From an uncultured Gemmatimonadales bacterium (lineage in GTDB: Bacteria; Pseudomonadota; Gammaproteobacteria; Pseudomonadales; IMCC2047), in assembly GCA_964195105.1 (NCBI GenBank), contig CAXMOT010000099.1, positions 1 through 53,325 of the forward strand: a stretch of 53,325 bases of DNA. Reading direction: 5' to 3'. The notes beneath the pieces are model-generated. The model was not told where the DNA came from, made no database searches, and saw only the letters and a list, made by a program, of their open reading frames with translations. Of the stretch, positions 3,649-39,599 are shown piece by piece (the stretch's first letter is position 1; each line of letters begins with the position of its first letter). The translations under genes were made by a program, and so were the position numbers.

Positions 3649-4140
3649 ATGAATAACGTACCCCCCAGCGTATGGCGCAATCCGACCCACTTCCTGGCGT
3701 TTGGTTTTGGTAGCGGCGCGGCACCCTTTGCGCCAGGCACCTTTGGCACCCTTGCGGCCATTCCCATCTACCTGTTGCTGCAGGACCTAAGCTGGTATAG
3801 CTATTTGCTGGTGGTCATTGTCGGGTTCGTCTGGGGCGTGTCCCTGTGTGGTCGCACCGCTGCCGATATCGGCGTACATGATCACTCCGGGATCGTTTGG
3901 GACGAATTCATTGGCTACCTGTTGACCATGTTTATGGCCCCGACGGGCTGGTTGTGGGTGGTGGTGGGCTTTTTGTTGTTTCGGGTGTTCGATATTTTAA
4001 AGCCCTGGCCGATTAATCGTCTCGATCGAGAGGTCCATGGTGGTCTGGGTATTATGCTGGACGATGTGCTGGCTGGCATCTTTGCCTGTGCGGGGTTGCA
4101 TGCGCTGGTATGGGCCGGACACAGGTTCGCACTGCTATAA
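3649..4140 (+). CDS. pgpA: Phosphatidylglycerophosphatase A
   Basis: 163-aa membrane protein with FGFGSG, PGTFGT and DILKPWP motifs. It occupies the thiL-pgpA position. Confidence 0.92.
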   Translation: MNNVPPSVWRNPTHFLAFGFGSGAAPFAPGTFGTLAAIPIYLLLQDLSWYSYLLVVIVGFVWGVSLCGRTAADIGVHDHSGIVWDEFIGYLLTMFMAPTGWLWVVVGFLLFRVFDILKPWPINRLDREVHGGLGIMLDDVLAGIFACAGLHALVWAGHRFALL

Positions 4141-4356
4141 TCCTGGAAACCTCAGTTGGATCACGAAAGTATGCACAACCTCTTGACGCACCTGGAAAAT
4201 TTGAAAAAGCTCCCATCACCAATAAGGTGGCTGAAAACCGCTCCTGCGTTTTCGGCATTTCCTACATCCCTACAGGTCACCATGAGTTTTCAAATTTCCC
4301 ATACACATCAATATGTTGCACATCTTATTCACGCCTAACTGAGGTTTCCAGGATAA
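4138..4356. mobile_element. MITE-like element, family A, long form (core 4141-4353, 213 bp) with TAA target duplication
   Basis: Perfect 16-bp terminal inverted repeats cctggaaacctcagtt (4142-4157) and aactgaggtttccagg (4337-4352). Direct TAA copies lie at 4138-4140 and 4354-4356. Three related copies occur elsewhere in the window. Confidence 0.8.
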
Positions 4357-4390
4357 TCAGGCACTAAGGGTATATAGGGGTACAAAAGGT

Positions 4391-5791: not shown

Positions 5792-7723
5792 TTAGGATTT
5801 TTCTGCAGCTTTGATATGATTTTTGGCGTCGGCGCGATCATCCAGGGCAGTGAGTCGCTGCTTGATGGATGCTTCAATTGCCGCGCTATCCAGCCCGGCC
5901 TCATGCAATTGTTCTTCGGGCTTGCCGTGTTCGATGAATTCATCGGGTAGGCCCAGGTTAAGCACCGGCGTATTATAGCCGGCTGCCAGCAGTACTTCAT
6001 TGACGGCTGATCCGGCACCGCCCATGATGCTATTTTCCTCAAGCGTTACCAGCAGTTCATGCTGATCAGCCATCTCCAGCACCAGTTCCTCATCAAGCGG
6101 CTTGATAAAGCGCATGTTTGCCACGGTTGCGCCGATATTTTCGGCGACTTCAAGCGCGGGTGTAACCATTGAGCCGAAGGCAAGGATAGCGACGCGCTTG
6201 CCGCTTGCTAATTGCTCGGCCTTGCCTATCGGGAGGGCCTTCATTTGCGTTTCAATAACGGCGCCGGGACCCTTGCCGCGGGGGTAGCGCACCGCCGCAG
6301 GGCCTTTATGTATAAAACCGGTATACAGCATCTGGCGGGCTTCGTTTTCATCGGCGGGCGCCATCACCACCATGTTGGGAATGCAGCGCAAAAAGGTGAA
6401 GTCGAAGCTGCCTGCGTGGGTGGGTCCGTCCTGGCCGACTAGCCCGGCCCGGTCTATCGCAAACAGGACATCCAGTTCCTGTATGGCAACATCGTGAATC
6501 AGCTGGTCGTAGGCGCGCTGTAAAAAGGTGGAGTAAATCGCAACCACCGGCTTCGATCCCTCACAGGCAAAACCTGCGGCGAGAGTGACGGCATGCTGTT
6601 CCGCAATCGCGACATCATGGTAACGCTCCGGAAACCGTTGGGCGAAGTCAATCAGGTCCGAGCCTTCTGCCATGGCGGGCGTAATACCGACCAGGCGTTC
6701 ATCCTGGTCGGCCATATCGCATAACCACTGGCCAAATACATTGGAATATTTTGGTTGTGCGGGCTTTGGCGACGCCAGTGTCACGGACGGCTTGGGTTCC
6801 AGCTTGTTAATCGCATGGTAGCCGACCGGGTCAGCTTCGGCAGGACTAAAGCCCTTGCCCTTGCGCGTTATAATATGCAGCATTTGGGGGCCAGGCAATT
6901 GCATCATATTGCCAATCGTGCCGAGCAGCGCTTCCATGTCGTGGCCATCGATCGGCCCGATATAGTTGAATCCCAATTCTTCGAACAGGGTGCCCGGCAC
7001 CACCATCCCCTTCATGTGCTCTTCGGTTTTACGCACCAGGTCGACCGCGCCGGGAAGGTTTTCGAGGACTTTTTTGCCGCCCTGGCGAACGTTCTGGTAC
7101 AGCTTGCTCGAGAGAATCTTCGCCAGGTAAGTAGACAGCCCGCCCACATTGTGTGAGATGGACATGTCGTTATCATTCAGGATCACCAGCAAATTCGCAC
7201 CGGTGTGGGCTGCGTGATTGAGTGCTTCGAAGGCCATGCCGGCGGTCAGTGCGCCATCACCGATGACCGCAACTACCTTGCGCGGGTTAGCCTGTTGCCT
7301 GGCTGCCAGGGCCATGCCCAGTGCGGCACTGATGGAAGTGCTGGAATGGCCGACACCAAAGGCGTCAAATTCGCTTTCGGCCCGATTCGGGAATGCTGCC
7401 AGGCCATCCTTCTGGCGGATGCTGGTCATCTGGTCGCGCCGGCCAGTCAGGATTTTGTGGGGGTATGCCTGGTGGCCGACGTCCCACAACAGTCGATCTT
7501 CCGGTGTATTGTAGAGGAAGTGCAGTGCCACGGTTAACTCAACGACGCCCAGGCCGGCACCAAAATGACCGCCGGATTGGCCCACGCAGTAGAGCAGGAA
7601 TTCCCTGAGTTCGGCTGCGAGCTGTGGTAACTGTTCTGCGTCTAATTTACGCAGGTCCTGCGGCACATGAATAGTGTCCAGCAGTTGGGTTTGCGGCCGG
7701 GCCCGCGGGATATCGTTTATCAT
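5792..7723 (-). CDS. dxs: 1-deoxy-D-xylulose-5-phosphate synthase
   Basis: 643 aa with [14 protein letters not shown] and the TPP-binding [15 protein letters not shown] motif. It follows ispA-xseB as in many gammaproteobacteria. Confidence 0.96.
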
Positions 7724-7761
7724 GGATTATTTAGTTTAATACCAAGCCATCGAGCGGCCAA

Positions 7762-7820
7762 TTATCCTGGAAACCTTAGTTGTGCAGACTTTCGTGATCC
7801 AATTGAGGATTCTAGGATTA
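7762..7820. mobile_element. MITE-like element, family A, short hairpin form (core 7765-7817, 53 bp) with TTA target duplication
   Basis: Arms cctggaaaccttagttg and caattgaggattctagg flank a 17-nt loop gtgcagactttcgtgat. That loop is the reverse complement of the subterminal sequence of the 4141 copy. Direct TTA copies lie at 7762-7764 and 7818-7820. Confidence 0.75.
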
Positions 7821-7845
7821 TACACAAGAGCACATCCAATGACCG

Positions 7846-8736
7846 CTAATTGTTGCGCTCCACAATATAGCTGGACAGGTCCCGCAACACATCTGCCTCC
7901 GGGCCGAACGGTAACAGCGCCTCGATGGCGCTGTGGTGCTGTGTGAGAGCCAGTTCGCGGGCCGCTTCGAGGCCCAGAATCGATGTATAGGTCGCCTTGT
8001 TCAGGGCCTGGTCAGACCCCTGTGGCTTGCCCAGCGTCTGTGTGTCACCCTCCACATCGAGTATGTCGTCCTTGATCTGGAATGCCAGCCCGACTGCCGC
8101 GGAATACGTCTTTAATGCGCTCAATTGCTCCGGGGTAGCTCGATCACTGGCCAGCGCGCCGAGCATAACGCTGGCGCTGATCAGGGCGCCGGTCTTCAGC
8201 CGATGCATGTGCTCGAGTTCCCGCAGTGACAGGATTTTGCCGGTGCTGGTGAGGTCGACGGCCTGGCCTGCCGCCATTCCGGCGGCGCCGCTTGCATGTG
8301 CCAGTTCGCGTACCATGGCCAGTTGGTTGGTAGTCGCTACGGGCGAGAGCGTCTCGGCAATCAGGACCTCGAAGGCCATGGCCTGCATCGCATCGCCGGC
8401 CAGGATCGCGGTAGCCTCGTCAAAGGCGATATGGCAGGTAGGCTTGCCGCGACGCAGGTCGTCATCATCCATGGAGGGCAGGTCATCGTGGATAAGCGAA
8501 TAGGCGTGAATGAGTTCGACTGCGCAGGCCGCGTTGTCGCACATCTGCAGCGGACAATTGAGGGTTTGGGCGGTTGCATACAGCAATATTGGTCGCACTC
8601 GTTTGCCGCCGTTGAACACGCCATACCTGATCGCCTCGCACAGGCGCGAGGCCGGGGAGTTTACTGCAGGAAGGCGTTGCTCCAGCGCAGCGTCAACACG
8701 CTGTTGGCATTGCAGGATAAAATCTTTGATCTGCAC
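7846..8736 (-). CDS. ispA: Farnesyl-diphosphate (geranyltranstransferase) synthase
   Basis: Both aspartate-rich motifs are present (LIHDDLPSMDDDDLRRGKPT and FQIKDDILD). 296 aa. Confidence 0.94.
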   Translation of the reverse strand: MQIKDFILQCQQRVDAALEQRLPAVNSPASRLCEAIRYGVFNGGKRVRPILLYATAQTLNCPLQMCDNAACAVELIHAYSLIHDDLPSMDDDDLRRGKPTCHIAFDEATAILAGDAMQAMAFEVLIAETLSPVATTNQLAMVRELAHASGAAGMAAGQAVDLTSTGKILSLRELEHMHRLKTGALISASVMLGALASDRATPEQLSALKTYSAAVGLAFQIKDDILDVEGDTQTLGKPQGSDQALNKATYTSILGLEAARELALTQHHSAIEALLPFGPEADVLRDLSSYIVERNN

Positions 8737-35675: not shown

Positions 35676-36383
35676 ATGAAGTTTCCGAATTCACTTATCG
35701 AAGCCACGCTGATGCGTCGTTATAAGCGCTTCCTGGCGGATGTCGAGCTGCCCGGGGGTGAGAAAATCACCGTCCATTGTCCCAATACCGGCAGTATGCT
35801 CGGGTGCGCGGAGCCGGGCTCCCGGGTCTGGCTGGCCCATTCCGATAACCCGAAACGAAAGTATGCCTACACCTGGCAATTAGTGGAAACCGAACCCGGC
35901 CAGCTCACCTGTATTTACTCGGCCCAGGCCAACACCCTGGTGAAGGAAGCCCTGGGCGAGCATCGATTGGCTGGACTGGATAATTACCCGCAGGTCGACA
36001 GCGAAGTGCGTTACGGCGTCGAAAACAGCCGCATCGACTTCCTGCTGTCGCGAGACGAGCAGCGCTGTTATGTCGAGGTCAAGTCGGTGACGCTGCATGT
36101 GGGAGATGGCCTGGGATTATTTCCGGACGCGGTGAGTAGCCGGGGTGCGCGGCACCTACGGGAATTGCAGGCGATGGTTGGCAAGGGCCAACGAGCGGTG
36201 TTGCTTTATGTGGTACAAAACACCGCGATCAACCGGGTCGCGCCAGCCTGGGAAATTGACCCGGCCTATGCGCAGGCGCTGCACGATGCCGTGGGCGCCG
36301 GAGTTGAAGTGATCTGCTATGGCTGTGACATATCTGCGGCGGAAATCAGGCTTGGCGCGCAGTTGTCCTTTAGCCCCGAGTAG
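35676..36383 (+). CDS. sfsA: Sugar fermentation stimulation protein homolog SfsA
   Basis: 235 aa. The N-terminus L..RYKRFLADV....G....HCPNTGSM is typical of SfsA. Confidence 0.9.
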   Translation: MKFPNSLIEATLMRRYKRFLADVELPGGEKITVHCPNTGSMLGCAEPGSRVWLAHSDNPKRKYAYTWQLVETEPGQLTCIYSAQANTLVKEALGEHRLAGLDNYPQVDSEVRYGVENSRIDFLLSRDEQRCYVEVKSVTLHVGDGLGLFPDAVSSRGARHLRELQAMVGKGQRAVLLYVVQNTAINRVAPAWEIDPAYAQALHDAVGAGVEVICYGCDISAAEIRLGAQLSFSPE

Positions 36384-36750
36384 TATCCGGTTTCGTAGTG
36401 AGTTTGCGAGTCGTCGCAACCGGTACGAAGTCCTGGTCCAATAGTACCTGTTCATCTACCAGTTCGAAGGCCACCCGGGTGAGGGGCTGGCCGCGGCAAG
36501 GGCCAGCAATACAGGCGCCGGTCTCCACCTCGAACAGCGCGCCGTGCATGGCACATTGCAGGTAGGTTTCGTCATAGCTAAAAAACTTGTCTTGCTGGAA
36601 ATCCAGGTTTACGCCGAAGTGCGGGCAGCGATTCTCATAGACGAATATCCGGGCATTGCGGCGTACCACCACGACCTGGCCACCCCGATAGGGAAACCCT
36701 TTGGCTTGTCCTTCAGCAATAGCGGACAGTTGGCAAAGCGGTGTGGTCAA
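36370..36750 (-). CDS. Rieske [2Fe-2S] domain protein
   Basis: CPHFG and CAMHG (CxH...CxxH) ligand motifs. 126 aa. The TTG start at 36750 is built from the MITE terminal base plus the target duplication. Confidence 0.85.
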   Translation of the reverse strand: MTTPLCQLSAIAEGQAKGFPYRGGQVVVVRRNARIFVYENRCPHFGVNLDFQQDKFFSYDETYLQCAMHGALFEVETGACIAGPCRGQPLTRVAFELVDEQVLLDQDFVPVATTRKLTTKPDTTRG

Positions 36751-36993
36751 CCTGGAACCCTCAGTTGGACAGGGAATTTACGGGAAATCTCGGCGTGCCA
36801 GGCAAGGCATCGCTCGCAGGTAATGGCCATTTCCTGGGCAAGAGCGATAACACGGCCTGCTGGGCTGAGAATTTCTGTAAAACCCTGTAGCAGACATCAG
36901 TTCACCCAATGAGTGACTGGAATAATTTAACTATTAAGGACTATATCAATAAGTTACACAAATACGAGCGGTCAACTGCGGAATCCAGGTTCA
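36747..36993. mobile_element. MITE-like element, family A, long form (core 36750-36990, 241 bp) with TCA target duplication
   Basis: Terminal inverted repeats acctggaaccctcagttg (36750-36767) and caactgcggaatccaggt (36973-36990) match at 15/18. Direct TCA copies lie at 36747-36749 and 36991-36993. The right subterminal region is homologous to the 4141 copy (atcaataWgttRcaca). Confidence 0.7.
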
Positions 36994-38292
36994 ACCTGTC
37001 GCCTCTTGTTTGGCGTTATTCTCAGCGTATTCATCCAGATCGGACAGGTCGTTAAATTGCTCCTTGTCCATCATGCCTTCGCTGTTGGCAATCACGGCGG
37101 TCACCATGGAATCGCCTGCTACATTCACGGCCGTACGCATCATGTCCAGCAGTCGGTCCACGCCGATAACGATCGCAATGCCCTCTACGGGCAACCCGAC
37201 TTGCTGCAATACCATGGCCAGGGTGATCAGGCCAACACCGGGCACACCGGCTGTTCCGATGGACGCGAGGGTTGCAGTGGTAATGACCATCAGGTAGCCG
37301 CTGAGGCCGATATCGACGTTAAATGCCTGGGCGATAAAGACGGTAGCAACCCCCTGCATGATCGCGGTGCCGTCCATATTGATGGTGGCGCCGAGGGGCA
37401 GGGTAAAGGCTGCGACGGAATTATCGATACCGACCCGTTTTTCCGCAACATTCAGGGTGACGGGCAGGGTTGCGCTACTGGAGGACGTGCTAAAGGCAAA
37501 CAGCAAGGCAGGGCGAATGTTTTTGAATAAGGTGAGCGGATTGAGCTTGGTGAACCCGTAGAAGAGCAGGGAGTAGACCCCCAGGCCATGCAGCAATAGC
37601 GCCAGGACGACGCAGAAGAAGTAAGCAGCCAGGTCCATGATCGCACCGTATCCCAGGTTGGCAAACAGTTTGGCTAGCATGCAGAACACGCCGTAGGGTG
37701 CCAGGTGCATCAGGATAACGACCATCTTCATGATCACTTCATTGAATTCGTTAAAGATCTCCTGGACCTTGCGGCCCTTGTCGCCGCAACGGGATACCGC
37801 AACGCCCATCAGCAGTGAAAAGACAATGATCTGCAGCATGTTGCCCTCGGCCATCGCCTGGATTGGATTGGAGGGGAAAATGTTGATCAGCACTTCCTTG
37901 AGTGACGGGGACTCTGTGGCAACAAAGCTGACTTCGTCGGCCATATTCATTCCCACACCCGGCTGGATCAGCGCCGCTACTGTCAGGGCCAGGGTGATCG
38001 CAACGGCGGTGGTGAAAACGTAAAGCAACAGGGTTTTGAGCGCCATATTCCCCATCCGTGCATTGTCACCCAGCGCCGAGCAACCACATACCAGGGAGAC
38101 GAATACCAGAGGCACAACCAGCAGTTTAAGCGATGCAACAAAGATGGTCCCAACCACATCGAAGGCGCCGTCCACCAGCGCCCATCGCACCCATTCGCCC
38201 AATCCCTCGGTGCTGCCGATGATCAGGTTCAGCACGATGCCCAGGCCCAGGCCTGCTACCATGCCGATTAATATGCGTGTGGTGAGATTCAT
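36991..38292 (-). CDS. Dicarboxylate/amino acid:cation symporter (DAACS family)
   Basis: 433-aa polytopic protein with family motifs ATINMDGTA and SIGTAGVPG. Confidence 0.9.
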   Translation of the reverse strand: MNLTTRILIGMVAGLGLGIVLNLIIGSTEGLGEWVRWALVDGAFDVVGTIFVASLKLLVVPLVFVSLVCGCSALGDNARMGNMALKTLLLYVFTTAVAITLALTVAALIQPGVGMNMADEVSFVATESPSLKEVLINIFPSNPIQAMAEGNMLQIIVFSLLMGVAVSRCGDKGRKVQEIFNEFNEVIMKMVVILMHLAPYGVFCMLAKLFANLGYGAIMDLAAYFFCVVLALLLHGLGVYSLLFYGFTKLNPLTLFKNIRPALLFAFSTSSSSATLPVTLNVAEKRVGIDNSVAAFTLPLGATINMDGTAIMQGVATVFIAQAFNVDIGLSGYLMVITTATLASIGTAGVPGVGLITLAMVLQQVGLPVEGIAIVIGVDRLLDMMRTAVNVAGDSMVTAVIANSEGMMDKEQFNDLSDLDEYAENNAKQEATG

Positions 38293-38407
38293 AGTTTCAT
38301 ACCCCTATTTAGTTCCAACGACCTGATAATTAAGGATTCAGTGAGCTGCGTCTTGTCTAGAATCATCTGGCAAACGCTGCATCTTAAATGATCAGGTGGT
38401 TGGAGTG

Positions 38408-39427
38408 CTAGTCCAATGATGGAGCGACATGCAGGCCGCCATCACTGGCGTGTGCATTCAGGCCCCTTGGCATCTTATAAGGTGAGTCGGCGCCGAGAAA
38501 ACGCTGGAATACTTCGTCATAATTGCCCACCTGGCTGATAACCTTATCATGCCAGCGTGGATCGAGGCCAATGCTGATGCCCTTGATGCCCGCCATATCC
38601 CACAGCCCCTTAATGTCCCGGGGGATGCTCTCCAGCGACTCGGCGCTGATGCCTAATTGCTCGGCACTCAGCATCAGCGCAAGCGTCCAGCGGATGATCT
38701 TGTACCACTCCACATCGTCGCTGCGCACCAGCGGCCCGGTGGCGCGTATGGCAATTTTATCGGGCAGCATACGGGTGTTGAGTTCGGCCGGTAACAGGGT
38801 CGCCAGGTAATGTAGCTGGGCCAGGTCGGCCGTTATCGCGTCGCAGCGCTGCTGTTCAAATGCCTTGGCTGCGGCTTCAATCGAGTTCATGGATACCAGC
38901 TTCAGTTCCAGGCCTGCGGCCGCCATAAACAGTTCCAGGTTTTGGTTGTGGTCCTGGTCATCATCGATGCATACCGATTTGTCCTGTAAATCCGTTGCCG
39001 TGTAGGCGTCCGCTTCATCACGGACCAATAGCGTCTGGCTGGCGAAATACAGTGGTTCAACAAACATCAGTCCCTGTGTGGTATCGGTCCCAAGTGCCAT
39101 CCCGGAGTGGCGCACGACGATATCCAGGTCGCCGGATTGCAGGGCTGCATGGCCTTTCTCAAGCGCCAATGGCACGAAGCGAACCCGGGTGGCATCGCCG
39201 AGGGTTGCGGCCGCGACCGCATGACAGAAGCTGACTTCAAGCCCTTGCCAGTTGCCAGCGTCTTTTACCGAGAATCCGGGTAAGCTGCTGTGCACGCCGC
39301 AGTTGAGAAAGCGCTTTTCCTTGATCCTGTCCAGTGTTGACGCGGCGCTCAGGTTGCTCGCATGCGCCATCGCGATGATAAGCAATAGGGTGAAAAGCGT
39401 TTGTAGGGGTGCGGCGGAGACCTTCAA
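38408..39427 (-). CDS. Amino-acid ABC-type periplasmic substrate-binding protein (AapJ/BztA-like), orphan
   Basis: 339 aa with a signal peptide ending AMAHA. The NCGV....PGF......GNW.G.....FC.AVAAA..GD motif resembles general L-amino-acid binding proteins. No adjacent permease or ATPase genes. TTG start. Confidence 0.82.
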   Translation of the reverse strand: MKVSAAPLQTLFTLLLIIAMAHASNLSAASTLDRIKEKRFLNCGVHSSLPGFSVKDAGNWQGLEVSFCHAVAAATLGDATRVRFVPLALEKGHAALQSGDLDIVVRHSGMALGTDTTQGLMFVEPLYFASQTLLVRDEADAYTATDLQDKSVCIDDDQDHNQNLELFMAAAGLELKLVSMNSIEAAAKAFEQQRCDAITADLAQLHYLATLLPAELNTRMLPDKIAIRATGPLVRSDDVEWYKIIRWTLALMLSAEQLGISAESLESIPRDIKGLWDMAGIKGISIGLDPRWHDKVISQVGNYDEVFQRFLGADSPYKMPRGLNAHASDGGLHVAPSLD

Positions 39428-39482
39428 CCTAGAAACCTCGGTTGTGCATACTTTCGTGATCCAACTGAGGTTTCTAGGTTCA
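39424..39482. mobile_element. MITE-like element, family A, short hairpin form (core 39427-39479, 53 bp) with TCA target duplication
   Basis: Arms cctagaaacctcggttg and caactgaggtttctagg (16/17 plus one G-T) surround the loop tgcatactttcgtgatc. Direct TCA copies lie at 39424-39426 and 39480-39482. Confidence 0.8.
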
Positions 39483-39599
39483 TAGTTCAGTGGCTACAAA
39501 TCTGGGCGGATGGGGAGAGTAGAATGCCGTTACTCTATGCGGGCGCGTTGCCAAGTGCAAGTGGCCGCGGCGTTCAACTGCGTGGAAGCCGGGCAGCGG

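Follow-up and report, generated by a model that had tools for sequence, protein, structure and literature searches.

It is already known that transposable elements of the miniature inverted-repeat type (MITEs) occur inside operons and that some dispersed repeats bear ribosome-binding sites (RBSs). The Correia elements, or NEMIS, of Neisseria are MITEs that are co-transcribed with the flanking genes, and their arms pair into a long hairpin in the RNA, with effects on the expression of the neighbours. They duplicate TA and have ends different from those considered here, and what they are known for is their promoters, their IHF sites and their cleavage by RNase III; we know of no case in which they keep overlapping stop and start codons. 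The transposon piggyBac has CC(C)TAG-type ends and an A/T-rich palindromic target, TTAA, which is comparable to the W-TNA-W target of the family described below, but it is eukaryotic and autonomous, duplicates the 4-bp TTAA and has, to our knowledge, no relation to gene junctions. Coupling of two genes by the unmasking of a structured RBS is familiar from the coat and replicase genes of RNA phages and from rpmI-rplT, where the RBS is sequestered by a region that the upstream ribosome traverses. Here we describe a locus at which the sequestering helix would, by prediction, consist of the inverted repeats of a transposon. It is a 239-bp MITE in a 53-kb stretch of contig CAXMOT010000099.1 (the window, by which we mean the whole of the DNA analysed), and it lies between a symporter gene and the gene for a small Rieske protein, whose stop and start codons overlapped before the element arrived.

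Several other described elements resemble this one in part. Chunjie, a MITE of Geobacter uraniireducens (Chen et al. 2008, Genetics 179:2291, cited in PMC3184786 and PMC10969869), is similar in its size of ~235 bp, in its position inside an operon whose structure is reportedly unbroken and in its very stable RNA hairpin (PMC3184786, PMC10969869). However, its direct repeats measure 9 bp and its arms, which differ in sequence, 21 bp (PMC3184786), and no stop/start overlap, rebuilt codons or outward-facing Shine-Dalgarno (SD) sequence is reported for it. The REP2 repeats of Neisseria and inverted repeats of Borrelia are also dispersed and bring an RBS, together with a promoter and an ATG, to the downstream gene (PMC3184786), but they are not derived from transposon ends with a duplication, they carry the start codon inside the repeat and they do not lie between coupled genes. 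The ends of the window element are those of insertion sequences (ISs) of the IS1380 family, such as IS1247, for which a 5-bp direct repeat is on record (PMC3281130), and a full-length element that we found on a metagenome contig (L176). These ends begin with CCTGG or CCTAG, continue ...AAACC.CAGTTG and are accompanied by a 5-bp duplication. The ISs measure ~1.5-1.7 kb, whereas the window element has 239 bp and no transposase, an interior unlike that of L176 and of most other copies, and no autonomous partner in the 53-kb window. The IS1380 transposases are in turn prokaryotic relatives of piggyBac, for which IS1380 has served as an outgroup (PMC10813416).

The genes of the locus and the element are all read on the minus strand, and their features are as follows.

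36991..38292, minus: gene for a sodium:dicarboxylate-family (DAACS) symporter of 433 aa, with its stop TGA at 36993-36991 (list of open reading frames, ORFs; Pfam SDF, 422 bits)
37002..37005, minus: putative ancestral SD, GAGG, within the 3' end of the symporter gene, 7 nt upstream of the left-junction TTG (sequence)
36990..36994, minus: left target copy TTGAA (ancestrally, most likely, TTGAC), containing the TGA that ends the symporter gene and a TTG start that is now orphaned (5-bp duplication deduced from 72 family copies)
36751..36989, minus: body of the MITE, 239 bp, without a long ORF (terminal motifs CCTGGATTCCGCAGTTG at 36989-36973 and CCTGGAACCCTCAGTTG at 36751-36767)
36973..36989, minus: symporter-side (5') terminal inverted repeat, identical to that of the related contig L081 over the whole arm
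36751..36767, minus: Rieske-side (3') terminal inverted repeat, matching the right end of the L176 IS1380-family element, CAACTGAGGTTTCCAGG
36758..36762, minus: SD-like motif GAGGG in the right arm, 7 nt upstream of the TTG (sequence; GAGGA in L081)
36746..36750, minus: right target copy TTGAC, with the Rieske start TTG at 36750-36748 (identical to the L083 empty site, TTGACCACACCG)
36370..36750, minus: gene for a small Rieske [2Fe-2S] protein of 126 aa (Pfam Rieske, 52 bits; homologues P0001-P0005)
36941..36994, minus: orphan ORF of 17 codons, formed from the old SD and the left-junction TTG, spanning the entire left arm, with its stop TAG at 36943-36941
36778..36780, minus: in-frame TAA within the element, upstream of the Rieske start (sequence)

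The symporter gene ends ...GCG ACA GGT TGA on the minus strand, and its stop is followed by ACCTGGATTCCGCAGTTGACC...GTCCAACTGAGGGTTCCAGGT (36990-36750, 241 nt), by a second TGA (36749-36747) and then by CCACACCG; the Rieske gene, TTG ACC ACA CCG..., begins at this right junction. The stop and the start are now 244 nt apart with both codons intact, and the C-terminus of the symporter (...QEATG before the stop) has the same length as in relatives that lack the element. A reading of the window from its letters alone (the sequence-only reading) had given these coordinates for the stop, the core, the second TGA and the TTG start, and the sequence bears them all out. Because the in-frame TAA at 36780-36778 bars earlier starts, TTG 36750 is the sole start upstream of the Rieske domain. 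Position 3 of the Pfam Rieske profile is aligned to residue 3 of the protein, and the N-terminal peptide expected from this start is (M)TTPLCQLSAIAEGQAK. The spacer between GAGGG (36762-36758) and the TTG is ttccagg. The orphan ORF, the only one on the sense strand of the element, ends 190 nt upstream of the real Rieske start, and its length is not conserved, its TAG being TAT in L081. The ends of the element make up an inverted repeat of 19 nt with 84% complementarity, and the window contains the terminal 17-mer eight times, in four elements, against 0.10-0.15 occurrences expected by chance.

That the element entered a stop/start overlap is indicated by relatives in which the site is empty. 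The Rieske protein has few relatives, and we compared the contigs that encode its five closest homologues. In the closest one (L081/L082, Rieske identity 94%) the element is present at the same site, in the same orientation and with the same TTGAA/TTGAC junction pair, whereas it is absent from L084 (80%; GTGA), L083 (76%; TTGA, junction ctgggTTGACCACACCG), L085 (68%; TTGA, junction caagaggcgacaggTTGAgcg) and L086-L088 (58%; ATGA). In all of these, which amount to five distinct element-free relatives, two of them with TTGA, the symporter stop and the Rieske start overlap by 4 nt. One of them reads ggTTGACCACACCG, which is exactly the empty site that the sequence-only reading had predicted when it set the alignment of this junction in relatives as a test beforehand. 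The L083 junction, ctgggTTGACCACACCGctg, is identical to the right flank in the window and the L085 junction to the left flank, and the two flanks combined rebuild the uninterrupted ...acaggTTGAccacaccg of the prediction. The N-terminus of the Rieske protein lies at the same codon in every homologue (ATG in L086-L088), and a GGAGG or GAGG stands 7 nt ahead of the overlap, inside the 3' end of the symporter gene, in L083, L084 and L085 as well as at the left junction in the window. Judged from these sequences, the state before the insertion is an overlapping stop and start with the presumptive SD of the downstream gene inside the upstream coding sequence, and the conserved overlap together with this SD points to translational coupling of the symporter and the Rieske protein. 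Since only the two closest sequences, the window and L081/L082, carry the element, the event is an insertion and not a loss, and it is most simply explained if the element arrived once, in the ancestor that the window shares with its 94% relative. The sequence-only proposal of an insertion into an overlap has thus held, with the overlap kept wherever the element is missing.

These empty sites were obtained via Rieske homologues in assemblies and not via symporter loci. The best 80 symporter loci of the genome collection (L001-L080; at most 71% identity, mostly metagenome-assembled genomes of Porticoccaceae/Cellvibrionales) have no Rieske gene downstream and gave no empty sites, and a search of the source runs for empty-site alleles, as a sign of population polymorphism, found no joints. 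The pairing of the symporter with the Rieske gene (window 36370-39427) is restricted to a narrow group.

As an element, the insertion is an ordinary IS1380-derived MITE. When metagenome contigs were scanned for exact matches to CCTRGAAACCTCAGTTG, at least 120 of them contained the end motif, and the pairing of plus and minus arms among the matches listed (loci L089-L208 and the window) gave 72 independent copies. They span 51-681 bp, with main size classes of ~163 and ~235 bp; their flanks are mutually unrelated, and the host DNA has 43-66% GC. In L176 (26-1562), whose host is a different, GC-rich organism, a 1537-bp element with the ends CCTGGAAACCACAGTTTG...CAACTGAGGTTTCCAGG, the same as in the window element, contains an ORF of 453 aa that reaches 248.8 bits with the NCBIfam model NF033539, 'IS1380 family transposase', for which the cut-off is 180, and 1e-46 with Pfam DDE_Tnp_1_4. 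The window element can be called a MITE with IS1380-family ends because L176 shares these ends around an IS1380-family transposase, and its termini CCTGG...CCAGG match those of the full-length element. It has the inverted repeats, the target duplication with an empty site, the small size and the dispersed copies that mark a MITE. No similarity to a transposase was found across the 53-kb window, and a search of Rfam with the window in full, at gathering thresholds, returned no matches, so that the element belongs to no RNA family described so far. Its sequence agrees with that of the other 71 copies only in the ~24-nt ends, plus 79 nt with one copy, and its interior is unrelated to that of L176; 'family' is therefore defined by the ends and not by the body. 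In runs X1 and X3, contigs match window 36802-36937 over 136 nt with 20 differences and then leave the match for unlike sequence, which places the interior in at least one further copy and makes the 239-bp subfamily multi-copy in the source community. Integron mobilization units, considered as a known IS1380-derived MITE, were not used for comparison: the literature that pairs them with ISSod9 concerns Tn3-derived elements (TIMEs).

Taken as a whole, the family occurs far more often than expected at stop codons and at stop/start overlaps of the NTGA type. With gene ends taken from open frames of at least 80 codons and the W-TNA-W sites of the same contigs as a baseline, the TNA of the duplication is the stop codon of a neighbouring gene in 24 of the 72 copies, compared with 5.7% of all W-TNA-W sites. 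An NTGA overlap is split by the element, with the stop in one copy of the duplication and a co-directional start in the other, in eight of the 72, compared with 0.93% (Fisher p 6e-7); when the baseline is restricted to non-interior sites it falls to 0.54% for overlaps and 3.9% for stops. The occupancy of overlaps thus lies ~20-fold above the expectation from available sites. Reconstructed empty sites passed through the same crude gene caller also give an excess of overlaps (5/54, p 1e-5) and of stops (15/54, p 2e-9). By Pfam, the split pairs are real: a histidine kinase with a LuxR-type regulator, PCMT with an NlpD-like LysM/M23 protein, an aminotransferase with AcpS, CoaX with a SPOR protein, and NifW with NifZ. 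In all split pairs the right arm ends ...CAACTGAGGTTTCYAGG directly before ATGAW. An outward GAGG stands at a fixed position 8 nt from the end in 123 of the 144 family arms (85%), and an SD-like motif is therefore built into both ends of the element, facing outward. The sequence-only reading had credited the GAGGG upstream of the Rieske TTG to the element arm, which as a matter of sequence is correct.

The differences between the window and L081 postdate the insertion, because both share it, including the odd TTGAA/TTGAC junction pair, and they thereby record the fate of the Rieske gene with the element in place. There are 17 synonymous and nine non-synonymous differences (synonymous divergence, dS, 0.21; non-synonymous divergence, dN, 0.032; ratio 0.15), and the ratio is 0.08 without codons 1-10, that is, when a variable patch at codons 7-10 is dropped; for the neighbouring sfsA the dS is 0.125 and the ratio 0.19. 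CPH and CAMH, the motifs of the Cys/His ligands, are retained, and the ORF is intact in both carriers. By this comparison the Rieske gene is evidently under purifying selection since the insertion, and the ratio of 0.15 means that the gene has stayed functional and must still be expressed. The variable patch (window 36721-36732) reads QLSA in the window and HPGD in L081, four consecutive changes; it also varies in L083 (RLDD) and L084 (RLAD) and is a hypervariable patch preceding a conserved I-x-E-G. The element itself differs from its L081 orthologue (window 36750-36990 against L081 92-332) at nine of 241 positions, and this 3.7% is significantly below the 13.5% that synonymous sites show when pooled (binomial p 3e-7), those of the Rieske gene and sfsA diverging by 12-21%. 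The low divergence could stem from constraint, from homogenisation with other copies or from recombination in a local tract.

The symporter and Rieske genes are probably still co-transcribed, since a scan over 36300-37300, a range that includes the element, showed no terminator-like site and since contigs assembled from one RNA-seq run extend across both junctions in a ~90% variant. A promoter carried by the element for the Rieske gene was considered and dropped: a promoter scan over 36300-37300 gave one weak -35/-10-like site in the element (36949-36922, minus), no more than chance, with 0.9 expected. Folded as RNA, the 271-nt region has a minimum free energy of -95.4 kcal/mol (z -4.3), and the two arms close the element. 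In this predicted fold the left junction GGUUGAA pairs with the right UUGACC, so that the symporter stop comes to lie opposite the Rieske SD and start. The predicted fold of L081 is the same, and the sole difference in the arms (G to A at 36758) makes a U.G pair U-A. When the cost of opening the 30-nt Rieske RBS is computed with ViennaRNA constraints, it amounts to 21.6 kcal/mol in the free RNA, 13.1 kcal/mol with a ribosome footprint on the symporter stop, 14.0 kcal/mol with the orphan ORF region occupied and 15.2 kcal/mol at the reconstructed empty junction.

In our account, a 239-bp non-autonomous element with IS1380 ends inserted into an ancestral TTGA(C) overlap of the symporter stop and the Rieske start, and the staggered-cut duplication placed the junction on both sides, each gene retaining its codon; this much the sequences show. 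The Rieske protein would now be translated from the SD borne by the element (GAGGG). The arms would pair in the mRNA and loop the element out, such that the symporter stop faces the Rieske SD and start, and ribosomes that finish the symporter, or that re-initiate on the 17-codon orphan ORF, may melt the 5' arm and unmask the Rieske SD and TTG. Part of the original translational coupling would in this way be retained across 244 nt. We hold this account as a whole, from the insertion, the rebuilt codons and the survival of the gene to the presumed co-transcription and stem-mediated coupling, with considerable confidence, while the use of the SD and the coupling through the stem are its predicted part.

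Several points weigh against it. The roles of the SD and of the stem are predictions from sequence and folding, and the predicted stem hides both the SD and the start, with a cost of 13 kcal/mol even under an upstream footprint, so that expression of the Rieske gene may have dropped. Pairing of the arms is a by-product of transposase-binding symmetry and so does not speak for selection on RNA structure. The RNA contigs are weak evidence: the sediment community was sampled with an oligo-dT library, depth was low, the strain is a variant, and DNA carry-over is possible; a search for better RNA runs turned up a single one, an oligo-dT library. At the DNA level, the two target copies at this locus do not agree fully (TTGAA and TTGAC), and 3 bp plus a terminal A/T pair fits this copy equally, and the enrichment at overlaps uses crude ORF-based gene calls and could be explained by selective retention.

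It is possible that coupling was simply lost, and that the Rieske gene is translated independently, and probably weakly, from the SD of the element, with the stem of the arms as a mere obstacle. The depth at which the RBS is buried in the prediction (21.6 kcal/mol, or 13.1 when a ribosome occupies the upstream stop) would agree with this, as would the orphan ORF, which stops 190 nt short of the real start. However, the dN/dS of 0.15 shows that the gene is still needed, the predicted stem sets the stop directly opposite the start, and the recurrent survival of the family in overlaps of pairs that depend on balanced expression (such as kinase and regulator, NifW and NifZ) suggests that expression does not suffer badly. 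We consider a complete loss of coupling unlikely, if by no means negligible, and favour coupling retained in part through the stem.

Somewhat less likely still is that the duplication comprises only 3 bp (TGA), such that the element would have 241 bp with a terminal A...T and would itself provide the T of the Rieske start codon, as the sequence-only reading had it. The copy in the window fits this perfectly, with no substitution to be assumed, while four of the five positions match under a 5-bp duplication; the bases adjacent to the element are complementary in 14 of the 19 family copies with imperfect 5-mers, and the full-length IS of L176 is flanked by CTCAG/CTCAA with a complementary adjacent G...C. 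However, 40 of the 72 copies have an exact 5-bp direct repeat outside CCTGG...CCAGG (consensus W-T-N-A-W), with zero exact matches at any other repeat length from 3 to 9 bp and none of 6 bp or more. The final two bases alone also repeat in 32 of the 72, as expected from the shared A-W ending. Indeed, the outer positions of the duplication match in 58 and 56 of 72 copies, where ~36 would be expected from a mere preference for A or T, seven copies duplicate outer bases that are not complementary (for example ATGAA, ATTAA and ATAAC), and a 5-bp repeat is on record for IS1247 (PMC3281130). Since the duplication of the family is 5 bp, the target at this locus was most likely TTGAC, with the right copy intact and the left copy now TTGAA, and the entire TTGA, including the T of the Rieske start codon, would probably be duplicated target. 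Both codons are rebuilt whether the duplication has 5 bp or 3 bp. What stands of the sequence-only claim is thus that the duplication regenerated the stop and the start; the 3-bp length and the element-derived T give way to the 5-bp duplication seen in 40 of the 72 copies. A 3-bp TNA duplication with IS5/IS1031- or Harbinger-like ends was also entertained and dropped after the tabulation of the 72 copies and the match to an IS1380 transposase. Among the 40 perfect duplications, 33 are A-TNA-T or T-TNA-A (~21 expected with independent half-sites), and across the 72 copies the outermost bases behave partly as if carried by the element; by analogy with piggyBac-type excision, this might reflect carry-over of donor flanks.

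Two further alternatives can be set aside. It is very improbable that the element-bearing state is ancestral and that the relatives lost the element by precise excision restoring the overlap, since, for all that IS1380 transposases are related to piggyBac and that piggyBac excises precisely, the element is missing from four successively more distant lineages (80, 76, 68 and 58%), which would need at least four independent precise excisions, its carriers (the window and L081/L082) are monophyletic, and an overlap is generally the common state in operons. We give equally little credence to the idea that the insertion silenced the Rieske gene, which would now be decaying or starting at a downstream GTG: the TTG start, the buried RBS and the run of four changed amino acids (codons 7-10) that separates the window from L081 could be taken in its favour, but the ORF is intact in both carriers with 17 synonymous against nine non-synonymous differences and a ratio of 0.08 past codon 10, the motifs CPH and CAMH are kept, codons 7-10 vary among the empty-site relatives too, and a start at the GTG near codon 26 would cost the protein the initial strands of the Rieske fold, a part that lies within the Pfam match beginning at residue 3.

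The window holds three more copies of the element. A copy of 211 bp at 4142-4352 (region 4137-4357) has a perfect ATAAT duplication, and the TAA at 4138-4140 in its left ATAAT is the stop of a 163-aa ORF (3649-4140), so that this copy sits exactly at a stop. At 39428-39478 (region 39423-39483) lies a mini-element of 51 bp, with little beyond the two arms and a TTCAA/TTCAT duplication. The gene for a solute-binding protein (38408-39427, minus), the first in the row of solute-binding-protein, symporter and Rieske genes, has its TTG start (39427-39425) inside this duplication, with the GAGG of the arm 8 nt upstream. A second mini-element of 51 bp at 7766-7816 (region 7761-7821) shares 86% identity with the copy at 39428 and is flanked by a perfect ATTAT duplication; its neighbours are the start of a minus-strand ORF (5792-7723) on one side and the stop of another (7846-8736) on the other, and no coincidence with a codon was detected there.

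Elsewhere in the family, the elements at the nifW-nifZ and kinase-regulator junctions (L097 1755-1998 and L208 1519-1765) measure 234 and 237 bp, which are multiples of three. The duplicated ATG there opens a frame of 80 or 81 codons that runs across the whole element and ends at the duplicated TGA overlapping the real start, and these through-frames form a relay of two ATGA overlaps. Because the frame reads through the arm, the orphan peptides of all copies begin M-I/N-L-E/D-T/S-S/A-V-D-R.

MITEs that sit in stop/start overlaps or supply an SD were sought in reviews, in a 2024 survey and by full-text searches, and nothing specific was found, which given the incomplete coverage is absence of evidence only. 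The junction niche of this IS1380-derived MITE is unusual, recurrent and apparently undescribed. Overlaps of 4 nt are usually regarded as fragile, tightly constrained operon junctions, and the locus is a clean natural case, with empty sites, in which a transposon splits such an overlap by 244 nt and both codons survive. The downstream gene gains what would be a new RBS, and purifying selection has kept it through a synonymous divergence of 0.13-0.21. Annotation is concerned as well: at such junctions gene callers may put starts or stops in the wrong place, or count orphan and relay ORFs as genes. The single locus is neat and well supported, and it is the enrichment at overlaps across the family that should interest specialists. 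The other occupied overlaps (nifW-nifZ, kinase-regulator and pcm-nlpD) turn it into a testable rule for where such elements can reside, and they offer a natural system in which to ask to what extent coupling depends on physical overlap and to what extent RNA proximity is enough. It is tempting to speculate that MITEs with IS1380-type ends are pre-adapted to the NTGA overlaps of coupled genes, in that the W-TGA-W duplication rebuilds both codons, a GAGG faces outward at SD distance on each end and the paired arms could loop the element out of the mRNA and keep stop and start adjacent, so that an operon junction would be split yet stay intact, an idea that we put forward tentatively and with less than even confidence. 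If it is true, overlap junctions would be a preferred safe harbour for these elements and the elements possibly a tunable spacer, rather than a one-locus accident, and some copies would relay coupling as an open frame through two ATGA overlaps.

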